From NCBI RefSeq assembly GCF_016026235.1, contig NZ_CP065613.1: a DNA stretch of 64,000 bases. The stretch is one strand, 5' to 3'. The stretch comes from Escherichia coli (GTDB lineage: Bacteria > Pseudomonadota > Gammaproteobacteria > Enterobacterales > Enterobacteriaceae). Both the position numbers and the translations under genes were made by a program. Below, in pieces: positions 35,673 through 45,736 of this stretch (its first letter is position 1; every line of letters begins with the position of its first letter). The notes below the pieces were generated by a model. That model was not told the origin of the DNA, did not search any database, and saw only the letters and a program-made list of their open reading frames with translations.

Positions 35673-37176
35673 TGGCAATTCTTGATGATGTGATTGGTGT
35701 TTTTTCACCTGGCTGGAAAGCTGCGAGATTGCGCTCAAGGGCATTAATTCGTGCCTATGAGGCAGTGAAGCCTACTCGTACACATAAAGCCCGGCGGGAA
35801 AATCGTTCTGCCGACCAGCTCAGTAAGTACGGTGCAGTTTCCCTGCGGGAGCAGGCTCGTTTTCTGGACATCAATCATGATCTGGTAATCGGTGTTTTCG
35901 ACAAACTTGAGGAACGGGTGATTGGTGCAAAAGGGATCGTTGTCGAACCCCAGCCATTACTGAAGAACGGTGATATAGCCACAGAGCTGGCAATGATTAT
36001 CCGTCGCTTGTGGGTGGAATGGTCTGTCAGTCCGGATGTGACCGGGCAGTATACGCGCCCCATGCTCGAGCGTCTGCTGCTGCGTACCTGGTTACGTGAT
36101 GGTGAAGTGTTTGCCCAGCTGGTTCGTGGTGCCGGCGGCGGGCTGGTGCGGACTGCTGGCGTGCCTTTCTGGATCGAGGCAATGGAGCCGGATTTTGTGC
36201 CCATGCTCAGTGATGAATCTGTGGGGTTGAATCAGGGTGTTTTTCTGGATGACTGGGGCAGACCGAAAAAATACCTGGTTTATAAAAATCATCCGACTAC
36301 CGGGCGGCTGAGTGATACCAAAGAGATCGTTGCCGAAAATATGGTGCATCTGAAATTTACCCGTCGTCTGCATCAGACGCGTGGTACATCCATGTTGTCA
36401 GGTGTGCTGATGCGGATCAGTGCGCTTAAGGAATATGAAGATGCTGAGCTGACAGCGGCGCGTGTTGCTGCGGCTCTGGGGCTGTATATCCGTAAAGGAG
36501 ATGGGCAGGATTATGAAGACGCCACGATAAATAAAGATAATGACCGGGAACTGCATATCACCCCTGGCATTATTTATGACGATTTGCGCAAGGGGAAGAT
36601 ATTGGCATGGTCAAATCTGATCGGCCCAATCCTAACCTTGAAACTTTTCGTAACGGGCAGCTGCGTGCGGTGGCCGCAGGCAGTCGTATGAGTTTTTCCA
36701 GTGCGGCGCGCAATTACAACGGTACCTACAGCGCTCAGCGACAGGAGCTGGTCGAGTCCACTGACGGGTATCTGATCCTGCAGGACTGCTTTATTGGTGC
36801 TGTAACCCGTCCCGTGTACCGGACGTGGCTGAACATGGTGGTAGCAGCAGGTCTGCTGAAAATCCCGTCGGATGTGGATATGAAAACGTTGTGTAACGCA
36901 ACATATTCCGGTCCGGTCATGCCGTGGATTGATCCGGTTAAGGAGGCTGAGGCCTGGAAAATCCAGATTCGCGGTGGAGCGGCGACAGAATCAGACTGGG
37001 TGCGAGCAGGTGGGCGTAATCCGGATGATGTCAAACGTCGGCGCAAGGCTGAAATTGATGAAAACCGCAAGCTGGGTCTGATATTTGATACCGATCCGGC
37101 CAGTGATAAAGGAGGCAGCAGTGTCGCAACGAAACGACAGGAGCCGCAGCACACCGACGGCCAGTCCGAAGAATAA
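35672..37176 (+). CDS. Portal protein, reading frame broken once
   Basis: 339-aa N-terminal ORF and 189-aa C-terminal ORF in the -1 frame; adding one G to the G4 run at 36592..36595 joins them (…LRKGEDIGMVKSDRPNPN…). Confidence 0.75.
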
Positions 37177-39180
37177 TTCCTGGTTCAGGATGCAGGCAGG
37201 TCACCAGAGTGACGCGGATATTTATATTTATGACGAGATTGGTTTCTGGGGTGTTACGGCGAAGCAGTTTATCAGCGATCTGAATGCACTGGGCGATATC
37301 ACCCACATTAATCTCCATATCAATTCACCGGGTGGCGATGTCTTTGAAGGCATCGCCATTTTTAATGCACTGAAAACACATGGTGCGTCCATTACCGTTT
37401 ATGTCGACGGTGTGGCGGCATCAATGGCGTCGGTCATTGCGATGGTGGGAAACCCGGTCATTATGCCGGAAAACACCTTCATGATGATTCATAAACCATT
37501 TGGCTTTACGGGCGGTGATGCGGAGGACATGCGCACCTATGCCGACCTGCTCGATAAAGTTGAGGCGGTTCTGTTACCCGCTTATGCACAGAAAACCGGG
37601 AAAACCACCGATGAAGTTGCTGCCATGCTGGCGGATGAGACCTGGATGTCCGGTGCCGAATGTCTGGCACATGGATTTGCTGATCAGGTGACGCCAGCCG
37701 TTAAGGCAATGGCATGTATTCAGTCAAAACGTACAGAGGAATTTAAAAAGATGCCGGAATCCATTCGAAACATGATTACTCCGCCACGCAACAGTGCAAC
37801 GCGTGAACCTGAAAACAAAAATACTGCATCTCAGACACAGGAGCAGACTACGGCTCAGGTTGCCACAACCGCGACCACCACAAATGCACCTTCCGCAGAT
37901 GAAAGCAGTATCCGTGCGCAGGTACTGGCAGAGCAAAAAGCACGTGTGAGTGGTATTAATGAACTGTTTGGTATGTTTGGCGGGCGTTATCAGACATTGC
38001 AGGCCAGTTGTCTTTCCGATCCGGAGTGCTCGCTTGAGCAGGCCCGTGAGAAATTACTTAACGAAATGGGTAAGGAATTTTCACCATCAAATAAAAATAC
38101 CCCGGCCCATATTTATGCCGGAAACGGTAATTTTGTGGGGGACGGGATCCGCCAGGCGCTGATGGCGCGTGCCGGGTTTGAAAAAACTGAACGTGATAAT
38201 GTCTACAACGGGATGACCCTGCGTGAATATGCCCGTATGTCACTGACTGAACGGGGTATTGGGGTTTCCGGTTATAACCCGATGCAGATGGTCGGGGCAG
38301 CGTTCACACACAGTACGTCTGACTTCGGTAATATTCTGCTGGATGTTGCGAACAAAGCCATTCTGCAGGGCTGGGAAGATGCCCCTGAAACCTATGAACA
38401 GTGGACGCGGAAAGGTCAGCTGTCTGATTTTAAAATTGCCCATCGTGTGGGTATGGGGGCTTCAGTGCTCTGCGTCAGGTGCGTGAAGGAGCGGAATATA
38501 AATACGTTACTACCGGAGATAAACAGGCCACGATTGCACTGGCGACCTATGGTGAACTGTTCAGTATCACCCGTCAGGCCATTATCAACGATGATCTGAA
38601 TATGCTGACCGATGTCCCGATGAAACTGGGCCGTGCGGCAAAATCCACTATTGCCGATCTGGTTTATGCCATTCTGACGTCTAACCCGAAAATCTCCACA
38701 GATAATGTAAGTCTGTTCGATAAAGCGAAACATGCAAACGTACTGGAGAGCGCTGCAATGGACGTGGCATCGCTGGATAAAGCCCGCCAGTTGATGCGTG
38801 TTCAGAAAGAGGGTGAGCGTCATCTGAATATTCGTCCTGCGTTCGTACTGGTACCGACGGCGATGGAGTCTGTTGCTAACCAGGTCATTCGCTCCTCAAG
38901 TGTCAAGGGGGCTGACATTAACGCCGGTATTATTAACCCGGTGAAAGATTTTGCGACCGTTATTGCAGAGCCTCGTCTTGATGATAACAGCCAGACCACC
39001 TTCTACCTGGCTGCGTCCAAAGGCTCCGATACGATTGAAGTGGCTTATCTCAACGGTGTGGATACGCCATATATTGATCAGATGGAGGGCTTCAGTGTGG
39101 ATGGCGTGACAACGAAAGTGCGTATTGACGCTGGTGTCGCGCCAGTTGATCACCGCGGTCTGGTGAAATGTACGGCGTAA
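37121..39180 (+). CDS. Prohead protease (ClpP-like) fused to scaffold and major capsid protein, reading frame broken once
   Basis: N-terminal ClpP-like block (DIYIYDEIGFWGV…INSPGGDV…MIHKP); capsid-like C-terminus in the -1 frame from 38479; bridged by adding one G to the G5 run at 38455..38459; GTG start with SD GGAGG. Confidence 0.65.
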
Positions 39181-40862: not shown

Positions 40863-41603
40863 ATGACCACACCAAATCCACTGGCAAAAACGAAAGGTGC
40901 GGGAACGACGTTCTGGATGTACACCGGCAAGGGCGATGCGTTTGCGAACCCTTTGTCGGACACTGACTGGCTGCGTCTTGCGATGGTGAAGGATCTGCAA
41001 CCTGGCGAAATGACCGCTGATGCAGAAGATGACACTTATCTCGATGATGAAGATGCAGACTGGAAAACGACAACCCAGGGGCAGAAATCCGTCGGTGATA
41101 CTTTGGCGACGCTGGCCTGGCGTCCGGGTGACAGCGGGCAGAAAAAACTGGTTCAGTTGTTCGATTCCGGTGAAGTCTGCGCGTTTCGTATCAAATACCC
41201 CAACGGTACGGTTGATGTTTTCCGTGGCTGGCTGAGTTCACTGGGTAAAACCATTACCTCAAAAGAGGTGATGACCCGTACTGTAAAAATCAGCGGTGTG
41301 GGGCGTCCGTATCTGGCAGAGGAGGGCGCTGAAACCGTGGGTGTTACCGGACTGACGGTGGCACCGGCATCTGTCAGTGTCAAAGCGGGAGCAACCACCA
41401 CACTGACCTTTACAGTAAAACCTGACGGGGCCAGTGACAAAGCGATCAGTGTGCATTCGTCAGATCCTCAGACTGCTTCGGTGACCCTGAGCGGGCTTGT
41501 GGCCACGGTGAAAGGCGTGAAGCAGGGCAGTGTCAGCATCGTGGGCATGACCTCTGACGGAGAGTTTGTGGCAGTGGCTGCGGTGACCGTCAGCGCACCA
41601 TAA
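40863..41603 (+). CDS. Major tail protein (lambda gpV-like with C-terminal Ig-like domain)
   Basis: MTTPNPLAKTKGAGTTFWMYTGKGD…VDVFRGWLSS… closely resembles lambda V as I recall it. Confidence 0.8.
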   Translation: MTTPNPLAKTKGAGTTFWMYTGKGDAFANPLSDTDWLRLAMVKDLQPGEMTADAEDDTYLDDEDADWKTTTQGQKSVGDTLATLAWRPGDSGQKKLVQLFDSGEVCAFRIKYPNGTVDVFRGWLSSLGKTITSKEVMTRTVKISGVGRPYLAEEGAETVGVTGLTVAPASVSVKAGATTTLTFTVKPDGASDKAISVHSSDPQTASVTLSGLVATVKGVKQGSVSIVGMTSDGEFVAVAAVTVSAP

Positions 41604-41624
41604 CAGGACGATACTCATCATTGC

Positions 41625-41646
41625 CCCGGTTATCCGGGGCTTTTTG
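41625..41646 (+). terminator. Hairpin plus T-run after the major tail gene
   Basis: CCCCGGTTATCCGGGGCTTTTTG. Confidence 0.4.
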
Positions 41647-41658
41647 CATCCGGAGAAC

Positions 41659-42048
41659 ATGATGTTTCTGAAACAGGATACGTTTAATTATGAAAAACAG
41701 TCCGTGGTGCTCAGTGAGCTGTCCGGGCTGCAGAGAATTGAATATCTGACGTTTGTTCAGCAGCGAACGGCAAAGTTTGATGCACAGGAGGGAGAACTGC
41801 CGGAGGCTGAACGACAGATTGCTTTTCTGCGTATGGGAATGGATATCAATGCCTGGCTGGTTTCCCGCTCACTGTGGAATGCTGAGCAGTCTCAGGATGT
41901 TGAGACGCTTTGCGCATCCATTATGACAACATGGTCGTATGATGCGCTGGGCGCGGGGGCGGAGAGGGTTCTGTCGCTGAGCGGTATGGGGACCATTGAG
42001 AATGCCGGGGATGATGATCATGAGGCGCTGACGCCGGAAAAGTCCTGA
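41659..42048 (+). CDS. Tail assembly chaperone (gpG-like)
   Basis: Acidic about 130-aa protein preceding the tape-measure gene; ends at a Lys-codon slippery run. Confidence 0.6.
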   Translation: MMFLKQDTFNYEKQSVVLSELSGLQRIEYLTFVQQRTAKFDAQEGELPEAERQIAFLRMGMDINAWLVSRSLWNAEQSQDVETLCASIMTTWSYDALGAGAERVLSLSGMGTIENAGDDDHEALTPEKS

Positions 42049-42056
42049 CGCGGGAA

Positions 42057-42386
42057 ATGCAGTTTGTCATGCGGCTTGCCCGGGAGTTCCGGCGGGCAGA
42101 CTGGCGGCGGATGCTGTCGGAAATGTCGGCCACTGAGCTTGGTGAGTGGGGCGATTATTTCCGGATGCAGAGCTTCAGTGATGTGTGGATGGATGCGCAG
42201 TTTGCCTCGCTGAAGGCATTGATCGTGAGAATGGTGTCCGGCAGCAGCGATGCTGCGGTGGCTGATTTCAGCCTTTTACCGGAAGAGAACGGGATACCGG
42301 AGCGAACGGACGAAGAACTGATGCATCTTGGGGAAGGTATTTCCGGAGGTGTGCGTTATGGACCAGATAGCCAACCTGGTCATTGA
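42057..42386 (+). CDS. gpT-like segment, probably expressed as G-T fusion by programmed -1 frameshift
   Basis: ORF in the -1 frame relative to G, with no plausible start of its own; GAAAAG run at the end of G. Confidence 0.5.
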   Translation: MQFVMRLAREFRRADWRRMLSEMSATELGEWGDYFRMQSFSDVWMDAQFASLKALIVRMVSGSSDAAVADFSLLPEENGIPERTDEELMHLGEGISGGVRYGPDSQPGH

Positions 42387-45300
42387 TTTGGGGATTGATG
42401 CGGCAGAGTTTAAAAATGAAATTCCCCGTATCAAAAACCTTCTGAATGGTGCAGCCAGCGATGCAGAACGGTCTTCTGCCCGTATGCAGCGTTTTATGGA
42501 GCGTCAGACTCAGGCCGCCCGGCAGACAACGCAGGCGGCTTCTTCGGCTGCAACAGCCGCATCCGTCCATGCGCAGACGGTGGAGAAGAACGCACAGGCT
42601 CATGAACGCATGGCCCGCGAGGTGGAGAAAACCCGCCAGCGCATGGAGGCGCTGAGCCAGAAAATGCGCGAGGAACAGGCGCAGGCCAGGGCACTGGCGG
42701 AGGCGCAGGATAAAGCGGCTGCCGCCTTTTATCGCCAGATTGACAGTGTGAAACAGGCCGGTGCGGGGCTTCAGGAATTACAGCGTATTCAGCAGCAGAT
42801 CCGACAGGCCAGAAACAGTGGCGGGGTTGGTCAGCAGGATTATCTGGCGCTGATTTCGGAGATCACGGCGAAAACCCGTGCCCTGACGCAGGCAGAGGAA
42901 CAGGCCACCCGGCAGAAAGCGGCGTTTATCCGCCAGCTTAAAGAGCAGGCAACCCGCCAGAATCTGTCGTCTTCTGAGTTGCTTCGCGCCAGGGCGGCTC
43001 AGCTGGGGGTAAGCAGTGCTGCAGAAGTGTATATCCGCAAAATGGAGCGGGCAGGAAAAGCCACACATTCGCTGGGGCTGAAAAGTGCGGCAGCCCGGCG
43101 GGAGCTGGGGGTGTTAATCAGTCAGATGGCGCGCGGCAATTTTGGTGCGCTGAGGGGATCCGGGATAACGCTGGCTAACCGTGCCGGATGGACAGGCGCA
43201 CTGATGTCGCCGAAAGGCATGATGACTGGCGGCGTTATTGGCGGACTTGTCGCGGCGGTCCTGGGTCTGGGTAAAGCCTGGCATGACGGCCGGAAGGAGG
43301 GCGAGGAATTTAACCGTCAGCTGGCGCTGACGGGACATTATGCCGGTGTCACTGTCGGGCAGTTGTGGAAACTCAGCCGGGCCATATCCGGGAATGGTAT
43401 CACGCAACATGCGGCAGCCGGTGCGCTGGCACAGGTGGTGGGCAGTGGGGCATTTCATGGAAACGATATTGGTATGGTGGCGAAAGCTGCCGCACAGATG
43501 GAGCGATCGGTTGGCCAGTCGGTCAGCGATACCATAAATCAGTTTAAGCGGCTGAAGGATGATCCTGTAAATGCCGCGAAGGCGCTGGACAATGCGCTGC
43601 ATTTTTTGACTGCCACTCAGCTTGAGCAGATACGCGTCCTTGGGGAGCAGGGGCGGTCCAGTGATGCGGCCCGGATCGCCATGTCTGCGCTGGCAGAGGA
43701 AACCGGTAAACGCACATCTGATATTGATAATAATCTCAATGCGCTGGGTAGTACGCTGCAAACCTTGTCTGACTGGTGGAAGCAGTTCTGGGATGCGGCC
43801 ATGAATATTGGTCGTGAAGACTCGCTGGATGCGCAGATTGATGCGTTACAGGAAAAAATTCAGCGCGCGAAAAAATATCCGTGGACAAACGCCTCCACAC
43901 AGGTGGAGTACGATCAGCAGCGTCTTAACGATCTTCAGGAGAAAAAACGCCGGAAGGATTTGCAGGATGCAAAAGCGCAGGCAGAACGGAATTACCAGGA
44001 GCAACAGAAACGCCGGAATGCTGAAAATGCCGCGCTGAACCGGATGAATGAAACGGAAGCTGCACGACATCAGCGGGAAATTGCGCGTATTAATGCCATG
44101 CAGTACGCCGACCAGGCTGTCAGGGATGCGGCGATACAGCGTGAAAATGAACGTTACGAAAAAGCCATTAAGAAAAATACACGGGCAACCCGTAATGATG
44201 AGGCCACCCGGTTATTGCTGCAGTACAGTCAGCAGCAGGCACAGGTGGAAGGGCAGATTGCTGCTGCCAGACAGTCAGCAGGCATTGCCACTGAAAGGAT
44301 GACTGAAGCGCATAAACAGCTTCTGGCCCTGCAGCAGCGCATCAGCGACCTGGGCGGGAAAAAGCTGACGGCAGATGAAAAGAGTGTGCTGGCCCGTAAG
44401 AATGAGCTGATTCAGGCGCTGACGCTGCTGGATGTGAAACAGCAGGAGCTGCAGAAACAGACAGCGCTTAACGACCTGAGAAAAAAAACGGTTCAGCTGA
44501 CCAGCCAGCTGGCAGACAAAGAACGTGCACTGCGTGAGCAGCACAATCTGGATATTGCCACTGCAGGTATGGGGATAAGCAGCGGCAGCGCTACCAGGCA
44601 CAGTTGCGCATCCGGCAGGAATACCGGCAACAGTTGCAACAGCTTGAGAATGACAGTCGCCAGAAAGGCACTTACGGGACGGAGGACTACCGGAGGGCTG
44701 AGGAGGTGCTGAAGGGGAGCCTGAAGCGACAACTGAATGAAAACAAACGCTACTGGCAGGAACTGGAAGTGGCGCAGGGCGACTGGAAAAACGGTGCCAT
44801 GCGGGCGTTTCAGAATTTTACGGCGGATGCGGATAATGCGGCGGGAACGGCAGAACAGATGTTTACAGTGGCATTCAGCAGTGCCGGTAATGCACTGGCG
44901 ACATTCTGTACCACCGGTAAGCTGAATTTTAAATCCTTTACCTCTTCCCTGTTGTCAGATATGGCCAGAATTATGGCACAGATGGCCATGATGCAGGCGG
45001 TAAAGGGCGTCGGTTCTTTATTCGGCTTCACGACTAATGCTGATGGCGGTGTTTACCAGTCTGCTGATTTGAGTCGCTACAGTGGCACGGTGGTTAACCG
45101 TCCGACGTTTTTTGCTTTTGCAAAAGGCGCGGGTGTGATGGGGGAAGCGGGACCTGAAGCCATTCTGCCACTGCGTCGCGGTGCTGATGGTAAGCTGGGG
45201 GTTGTGGCGGATACTGGTGGTTCAGGCATGGTGATGTTTGCCCCGCAGTACAACATTGAGATCAATAACGATGGCACGAACGGGCAGATAGGTCCGGCTG

Positions 45301-45398
45301 CCCTGAAGGTGGTTTATGACCTCGGGAAAAAAGCGGCCGCGGACTTTATGCAACAGCAGGCCCGTGATGGTGGCCGGTTAAGTGGAGCATACCGGTAA
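42358..45398 (+). CDS. Tail tape measure protein (gpH-like), reading frame broken once
   Basis: Long Ala/Gln-rich coiled-coil protein; 794-aa ORF continues in the -1 frame as a 264-aa ORF; adding one G to the G4 run at 44571..44574 gives about 1013 aa. Confidence 0.8.
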
Positions 45399-45727
45399 TG
45401 GAGACGTTTCACTGGAAAGTGCGCCCGGATATGAATGTGGTATCAGAGCCGAAAGTGGTGACAGTGAAGCTGGGCGATGGTTATGAACAGCGTCGTGCGG
45501 CGGGACTGAATAACCAGTTGTCGACTTACAGCGTGACGATACGTGTTCGTAAAGGTGAACACCCATCTTTAAAAGCCTTTCTGGAACGGCACGGTGGCGT
45601 CCGCGCATTTCAGTGGACGCCACCTTATGACTGGAAGCCGATCAGGGTGGTTTGTCGTAAATGGTCGGCAAGCGTGGGGGCGTTGTGGGTAACCATAACG
45701 GCAGATTTTGAACAGGTCGTGGCATAG
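45398..45727 (+). CDS. Minor tail protein M
   Basis: 109 aa, same length and position as lambda M. Confidence 0.75.
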   Translation: METFHWKVRPDMNVVSEPKVVTVKLGDGYEQRRAAGLNNQLSTYSVTIRVRKGEHPSLKAFLERHGGVRAFQWTPPYDWKPIRVVCRKWSASVGALWVTITADFEQVVA

Positions 45728-45736
45728 GAGTCTCTG

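Follow-up and report, generated by a model that had tools for sequence, protein, structure and literature searches.

In the window analyzed here, a stretch of 64,000 nucleotides from Escherichia coli (contig NZ_CP065613.1), a gene resembling lambda G ends at a stop codon, and a frame resembling lambda T runs past this stop in the −1 frame. The question raised by this arrangement is how the T-like frame comes to be translated. We favor, and hold to be very probable, the reading that a lambdoid E. coli prophage here uses programmed −1 ribosomal frameshifting of the lambda type in its tail assembly chaperone gene.

The genes around the junction are laid out as follows.

40863..41603, plus strand: tail tube (lambda V-like) gene, an ORF beginning MTTPNPLAK..., with AAGGAGGTG upstream; genomes that are identical here, or nearly so, list it as 'phage tail tube protein'
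41623..41640, plus strand: terminator-like GC hairpin with T5 run, with 7 G-C pairs closing a 4-nt loop, then TTTTT
41662..42048, plus strand: gpG-type tail assembly chaperone gene, 128 aa, 14.4 kDa, with TGA at 42046-42048
42024..42386, plus strand: gpT-type reading frame, −1 relative to G, 120 open codons; its portion from 42042 onward codes for the T domain of GT
42358..45398, plus strand: tape measure (lambda H-like) gene, sharing 29 nt with the end of T, with GGAGG 6 nt before its ATG

The order tail tube, G, T, tape measure is given by the ORF map together with the annotation of identical and near-identical regions. The hairpin, a strong one, sits between the tube gene and G, and in mEp460 its counterpart carries the annotation of a rho-independent terminator. 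A pair of ATG codons, at 41659 and 41662, opens the G 0-frame ORF, and GGAG lies 5-6 nt before the second. The start is taken to be 41662, giving MFLKQD..., as in lambda G. The G protein is identical to WP_000478927.1. Several E. coli chromosomes match the G/T region as a whole at 100% identity, and the temperate phages mEp460, cdtI, Tritos, and others match it at 96-97%; it occurs in about 1840 of 5426 complete E. coli genomes.

Scored on the conceptual 241-aa GT fusion, the equivalog model TIGR01674 (phage_lambda_G) matches residues 1-128 with 180 bits against a cut-off of 74, and the equivalog TIGR01715 (phage_lam_T) matches residues 132-238 with 134 bits against a cut-off of 77. The Pfam matches are Phage_TAC_2 (PF06894) for G, at 1.2e-39, and Phage_tail_T (PF06223) for T, at 2.1e-14; those in PHROGs are phrog_42 for G, at 2.5e-51, and phrog_39 for T, at 3.8e-42. 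A further family, phrog_32165, covers residues 1-237 of the conceptual fusion as a single, fusion-length family. Judged by its sequence, the G/T pair belongs to the lambda G/GT system of frameshifted tail assembly chaperones: it has a gpG-family protein, a gpT domain, a position between tube and tape measure genes, a −1 overlap, and a conserved in-phase slippery sequence.

The junction itself reads ...GAG GCG CTG ACG CCG GAA AAG TCC TGA CGC GGG AAA TGC... in the G frame. A preliminary description of this DNA had the G-like ORF ending in CCG GAA AAG TCC TGA and the T-like ORF open in the −1 frame across that stop. The codons and coordinates of the first are correct (ACG CCG GAA AAG TCC TGA), and the second is confirmed, with the open frame extending over 42024..42386. 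That open stretch follows directly on a TGA of the −1 frame at 42021-42023. The G and T frames thus overlap over 25 nt only (42024-42048), and any shift joining G to T must fall within this short segment. Seven heptamers lie in phase in the overlap, and only one of them, G_GAA_AAG at 42036-42042, allows re-pairing in the A site. The preliminary interpretation, slippage of tRNA-Lys on the GAAAAG run, is supported. Two further features follow.

42036..42042, plus strand: slippery heptamer G_GAA_AAG, read GGA_AAA_G in the −1 frame, the predicted −1 ribosomal frameshifting site
41662..42042 joined to 42042..42386 (base 42042 read twice), plus strand: predicted GT fusion, 241 aa, 27.2 kDa

The fusion is predicted to read ...ALTPEK|VLTREMQF... 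across the junction.

How does this site compare with that of lambda? In lambda, experiments have established G_GGA_AAG as the site of the G/GT shift, which yields G and GT at about 30:1 (Levin et al. 1993; Xu et al. 2013/2014; reviewed in PMC5009743). The GT fusions of the window, Gifsy-2, φ80, and lambda align end to end, and the column of the slip-site lysine (K127) is invariant among them. At the nucleotide level, 20 diverged relatives, lambda included, align without a gap over 96 nt from the heptamer on, with GGAAAAG placed over GGGAAAG. On the strength of this gapless alignment, the window heptamer is the positional homologue of the lambda site, from which it differs by one substitution, G to A at position 3.

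The likeness to lambda goes further. G and T are homologous to their lambda counterparts, with 34% identity over the whole of GT; gene order, the −1 direction of the shift, the aligned pair of shift codons, and the gapless downstream T frame are shared; there is no conserved downstream structure; and the fusion is longer than the main product. The differences are as follows. The window has G_GAA_AAG with Glu GAA in the P site, which would re-pair with a central G.U, whereas lambda has G_GGA_AAG with Gly GGA. The G stop comes one codon after the heptamer in the window and five codons after it in lambda. The G/T overlap is 25 nt in the window and 64 nt in lambda. GT has 241 aa in the window, with a shorter T domain, and 279 aa in lambda. 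The clade of the window has an early in-frame ATG in T where lambda has CTG.

The heptamer also departs from the canonical X_XXY_YYZ rule: positions 1-3 are G, G, and A, hence not identical, and only positions 4-6 (AAA) comply. It is not a canonical slippery sequence, since the re-pairing from GAA to GGA in the P site is merely near-cognate. The locus had been described at the outset as being arranged as in lambda G/GT. That holds for the homology of the genes and for the aligned position of the shift; it does not hold for the heptamer, which is a non-canonical, one-base variant of the lambda sequence.

How widely this variant is shared was determined from 89 related loci, gathered from phage records and one IMG/VR scan. 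Each locus was tallied under whichever in-phase heptamer with A-site re-pairing lies closest upstream of the G stop. By this rule GGAAAAG is found in 82 of the 89. The remaining seven comprise lambda with GGGAAAG, one contig (L086) with C_GCA_AAG, three loci with a second candidate downstream, and two with disrupted G genes. Those with a second candidate contain GGAAAAG as well but are tallied under the downstream one.

Conservation of the letters, rather than of the encoded residues, was examined in a codon alignment of 60 distinct G genes that are 31-100% identical to that of the window (median 53%). The slip-site codons are frozen: glutamate is GAA in 58 of 58 and lysine is AAG in 59 of 59. 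Conserved codons elsewhere in the gene, taken as controls, drift, with K4 being AAA in 53 and AAG in 6, E19 being GAG in 27 and GAA in 30, and Q24 being CAG in 33 and CAA in 27. In this alignment the base before GAA is always G, across Pro, Leu, Glu, Ala, and Val codons. The pattern indicates that the heptamer is under purifying selection at the level of the nucleotides, in codon phase, and at the positions needed for a tandem −1 slip.

The occurrence of the letters as such carries little weight. Bare GGAAAAG is present in 16 copies in the window against 9.7 expected, and G itself holds a second in-phase A_AAG, at 41769. The expectation of finding the heptamer in phase within the 25-nt overlap is about 5e-4. 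With the bare 7-mer so commonplace, its mere occurrence is uninformative, and support is drawn instead from phase, position, conservation, and homology with the lambda site.

A frame break of this kind might also be damage. That is, a sequencing artefact or a pseudogene lesion, an indel in the A run, could have split one continuous gene. The window invites the suspicion: the capsid and tape measure genes are each split by the loss of a single G from a G run, and the junction holds a run of four A's. Comparison with an intact, near-identical prophage of E. coli FDAARGOS_943 places the deletions at about 38455, where the gene for a ClpP-like protease/major capsid fusion is split, and at about 44571, where the tape measure gene is split. 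However, the two-frame overlap is present in the independent, complete genomes of phages mEp460, cdtI, Tritos, Gifsy-2, φ80, and LLS; the same junction is found in 82 of the 89 loci and in about 1840 E. coli genomes; and lambda shares the two-frame architecture. We give this explanation next to no chance, and, as concerns a sequencing or assembly artefact at the A4 run, the comparative data effectively refute it. The preliminary description had set the junction apart from the homopolymer breaks as expected biology, and the recurrence of the same two-frame junction in independent phages and in lambda bears this out.

The G-run breaks are either real lesions or homopolymer sequencing errors. With the capsid and tape measure genes broken, the shift site may have no phenotypic consequence in this host; should the lesions be genuine, tails could not be built from this prophage copy, and the site would be a conserved relic here. 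The G/T junction serves the window as an internal control, a biological frame break to set against the two G-run lesions or errors.

Frames can also be joined at the level of the transcript, by RNA polymerase slipping on a run of A's. The short A run (AAAA) at the junction is the only point in favor of such an origin for the fusion. Productive slippage by bacterial RNA polymerase needs a run of roughly eight or more A or T residues, and the junction, with four, falls short of it. Moreover, conservation follows the codon phase, with a G held at position 1 and AAG held against AAA, which argues for re-pairing of tRNAs and not for run length. We regard transcriptional slippage as scarcely credible here.

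For the favored reading, ribosomal frameshifting, the following scheme is proposed. Most ribosomes would terminate at the end of G (41662..42048), yielding the 128-aa chaperone. A small minority would slip back one base at G_GAA_AAG (42036-42042) and go on in the T frame to 42386, making the 241-aa GT. In the A site, tRNA-Lys (mnm5s2UUU) would move from AAG to AAA, a cognate re-pairing. In the P site, tRNA-Glu would move from GAA to GGA, keeping two Watson-Crick pairs and a central G.U. Thus read, the G at position 1 would permit tRNA-Glu to sit on GGA, and positions 4-7 (A_AAG) would permit the shift of tRNA-Lys. Following the lambda model, the tape measure protein would be coated by G and by the G portion of GT, and the T portion would recruit the tail tube protein; a low shift rate would set a high G:GT ratio. 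We infer that slippage does take place at the predicted site, and that its efficiency would be low, at the percent level, as in lambda (for the lambda G/GT frameshift, see Levin, Hendrix & Casjens 1993 and Xu, Hendrix & Duda 2004, 2013, 2014, cited through PMC5009743).

The background from E. coli is favorable to such an event. The move of tRNA-Lys from AAG to AAA is the classic shift-prone event in this organism (PMC5009743; PMC4066793), A_AA.G is the most shift-prone tetramer, and X_XX.A_AA.G is the best class of heptamer (PMC4066793). The same background raises the matter of how many tRNAs slip. A real shift could be made by tRNA-Lys alone on A_AAG (42039-42042), either in the P site with the A site empty or in the A site alone, with the upstream G_GA playing no part and the protein product being the same.

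Several observations speak for such single-tRNA slippage. A_AAG alone gives −1 shifting in E. coli, and there are natural sites, G_CGA_AAG of IS1222 and A_CGA_AAG of B. subtilis cdd, at which the P site does not re-pair (PMC5009743; PMC4066793). The contig with C_GCA_AAG, likewise, retains A_AAG only. Against this, a G precedes GAA in every family member but that contig, whatever amino acid its codon encodes, and GAG is never used for the slip-site glutamate (0/58), whereas a pure A_AAG slip needs an A at position 4 and has no need of a G at position 1. In addition, when the stimulator is the same, a tetramer shifts about 10-fold less than a heptamer (PMC4066793). We therefore consider slippage of tRNA-Lys alone to be unlikely, while giving it some weight. 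Tandem slippage of both tRNAs on G_GAA_AAG, as the conserved letters suggest, is the best-supported mode.

Stimulatory elements were sought on both sides of the heptamer. A downstream stimulatory RNA structure was rejected on the outcome of a shuffle test and of a near-empty consensus fold. The fold of 42036-42135 is not distinguishable from those of shuffled sequences (z = −1.77; 14 of 200 shuffles fold equally well). Folded jointly, 20 relatives give −1.27 kcal/mol with 4 pairs and no covariation, hence no conserved downstream structure. This counts against the favored reading, as does the weakness of A_AA.G, which barely exceeds background when no stimulator helps it (PMC4066793). Upstream there is one candidate.

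42022..42025, plus strand: SD-like GAGG, 10 nt upstream of the heptamer, with an anti-SD duplex of −5.6 kcal/mol at a spacing of 9-10

SD-like elements 6-17 nt upstream are known to stimulate −1 shifting in E. coli (PMC4066793). Over 47 distinct junctions, the anti-SD duplex energy averages −0.86 kcal/mol across the gene but dips to a mean of about −4 kcal/mol where the spacing is 7-10 nt. Of 18 representatives, chosen to have differences at no fewer than 6 of 28 upstream positions, 9 carry a tract reaching −4 kcal/mol or lower at a spacing of 5-12, against a background of 22%; the nominal p of about 0.009 is for non-independent sequences. The tract is absent in lambda and φ80. It is possible, on this evidence, that GAGG at 42022-42025 is a weak, non-essential modulator of the shift. 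The region of the tract encodes acidic residues and is purine-rich anyway.

The T frame was initially said to have no start of its own. This is not so, as an in-frame ATG is found 8 nt after the G stop.

42057..42059, plus strand: in-frame ATG from which databases begin a separate 109-aa T; translation probably does not initiate there

T could then be made independently from this ATG as a 109-aa protein, for example by termination-reinitiation, and no frameshift product would be needed. The position of the codon, in frame and close behind the TGA of G, suits that proposal, and the databases follow it. PGAP and all examined phage records of the mEp460/cdtI clade annotate a separate 109-aa T from the equivalent ATG. 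In an exact-sequence look-up, G and the 109-aa T were each found on at least 1000 contigs, and the 241-aa fusion, as an exact sequence, was absent from a collection of 15 billion proteins. Such stand-alone annotation, however, reflects gene-caller defaults and is not evidence.

The sequence around the ATG is less accommodating. The only SD-like match before it is GGGAA (−4.3 kcal/mol), which abuts the ATG with 0 spacing and is poorer than the matches of the flanking genes, that of G being −6.6 kcal/mol at a spacing of 5 and that of the tape measure gene −10.8 at a spacing of 6. The aligned codon is CTG in lambda and φ80, CTT in Gifsy-2, and ATT, ATC, or CGT elsewhere. With codons of this kind at the aligned position, the family as a whole cannot rely on the ATG at 42057. 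Moreover, an independent start would leave the frozen synonymous sites of GAA-AAG and the invariant preceding G unexplained, and the lambda T domain works as part of GT (PMC5009743). Independent synthesis of T is thus very unlikely in our estimation. As the ATG is neither conserved nor provided with a properly spaced SD, the frameshift interpretation is not overturned, and the ATG is probably a clade-specific Met codon seized on by gene callers rather than a genuine start.

The family sequence allows one more proposal, which combines several of the features above. In this family GGAAAAG is the majority form (82 of the 89 sampled loci), and the canonical lambda heptamer is the exception. GGAAAAG might be a deliberately detuned signal, one that sets a G:GT ratio other than that of lambda, possibly with free T as a third product. 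[quoted passage not shown] We offer this as a speculative proposal, with the odds well against it.

That the locus is a G/GT frameshift is a correct assignment, an ordinary one, and one already known: such shifts are textbook knowledge for phages with long tails, and the record of a related phage already marks this heptamer as a −1 site. What the locus adds concerns annotation. The examined records of the clade systematically miss the fusion, and slippage-aware annotation that accepts G_GAA_AAG besides X_XXY_YYZ would correct about 1840 complete E. coli genomes.

The site resembles the A_AAG sites (IS1222, the IS3 family, and B. subtilis cdd) in the move of tRNA-Lys from AAG to AAA and in imperfect or absent P-site re-pairing (PMC5009743; PMC4066793); the IS1222 sequence is one such A_AAG site reviewed in PMC5009743. 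Those sites rely on strong downstream pseudoknots or hairpins, whereas the window site has no conserved one and could re-pair in the P site in near-cognate fashion.

E. coli dnaX, with A_AAA_AAG, shares with the window the AAG in the A site and, possibly, an SD-like tract about 10 nt upstream. The dnaX signal has a strong downstream hairpin and an efficiency of about 50%. The dnaX shift product is shorter than the main product, and the SD-like tract in the window is weak and present in about half of the diverged relatives.

Parallels are also found in other phages. A search of the literature for the heptamer together with tail frameshifting matched only unrelated primer sequences. In the record of phage LLS (PQ299149.1), a misc_feature at the homologous position reads 'minus-one programmed translational frameshift site GGAAAAG'. 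The paper on LLS (PMC12315714) does not discuss the frameshift annotation, and the LLS site appears to be a database annotation and not the outcome of an experiment. LLS, φ80, and mEp213 share GGAAAAG with the window, identical in letters, phase, and homologous position, and the LLS record marks the joined CDS as arising by slippage. They differ from the window in having about 37% protein identity to it, a G tail of 5 codons past the site, and no ATG at the position of 42057.

Gifsy-2 of Salmonella (STM1039/STM1041.1n) is closer, being 53% identical. It has the same local sequence, ACGCCGGAAAAGTCCTGA, and its G stop likewise lies one codon past the heptamer; the T frame has CTT (Leu) at the position of the window's ATG. 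The Gifsy-2 annotation describes T as 'part of G+G' frameshift hybrid protein'.

Between the stop of the tail tube gene and the start of G, the gpG-type tail assembly chaperone gene, lies a strong terminator-like hairpin, and three further features bear on the predicted −1 ribosomal frameshift from G into the gpT-type frame (T) at the heptamer G_GAA_AAG (42036–42042):

41623–41640: strong terminator-like hairpin, GCCCCGG TTAT CCGGGGC, followed by TTTTT
42022–42025: SD-like purine tract, window copy
42043–42048: codon after the heptamer and the G stop
42057–42386: stand-alone "T" of 109 aa, WP_001161009.1

Most family members have their 0-frame stop exactly one codon past the heptamer, although the stop itself may be TGA or TAG and the codon before it also varies. 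The 0-frame stop is five codons past the heptamer in λ and φ80, and four codons past in three loci. The heptamer itself is replaced by C_GCA_AAG at the homologous position (993–999) of one related locus, L086 (IMGVR_UViG_3300036792_000541), in which the A_AAG tetramer is the only part retained.

An SD-like purine tract is found 5–12 nt upstream of the heptamer in 9 of 18 diverged relatives, against a background of 22%; related loci carrying one include L007, L040, L050, and L059. The arrangement recalls the upstream stimulator of dnaX and IS911. λ and φ80 lack such a tract.

The predicted 241-aa GT fusion has no exact-sequence match among about 15 billion proteins, and the 109-aa stand-alone "T" is present on at least 1000 contigs. 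Together, these observations point to a systematic annotation gap in the mEp460/cdtI clade. The hairpin's equivalent, by comparison with the mEp460 record, is annotated there as a rho-independent terminator. The hairpin could hold expression of G, T, and the tape measure gene, H, below that of the tube protein.

Two genes of the prophage are broken, as follows.

37085–38599 and 38479–39180: ORFs of the broken ClpP-like prohead protease/major capsid fusion gene, break at 38445–38465
42358–45398: broken tape measure gene, break at 44560–44580

Each break is the loss of a single G from a G run, and GGTAT precedes both runs. The protease/capsid gene is split by the change of GTATGGGGGG to GTATGGGGG relative to the intact gene of E. 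coli FDAARGOS_943, which carries a near-identical prophage; either a genuine pseudogene lesion or a sequencing error in the homopolymer could account for this break. In the tape measure gene, GTATGGGGG has become GTATGGGG relative to CFSAN029787 and FDAARGOS_943, which splits the gene. E. coli O121 201805972, the G/T region of which is identical to that of the window, has a different deletion in this gene, of 46 nt, and PGAP labels the gene "frameshifted". Further downstream, within 45715–45735, where the gene that follows the tape measure gene meets the next one, the window carries a GCATAGGAGT-like 10-nt segment that is missing from FDAARGOS_943.
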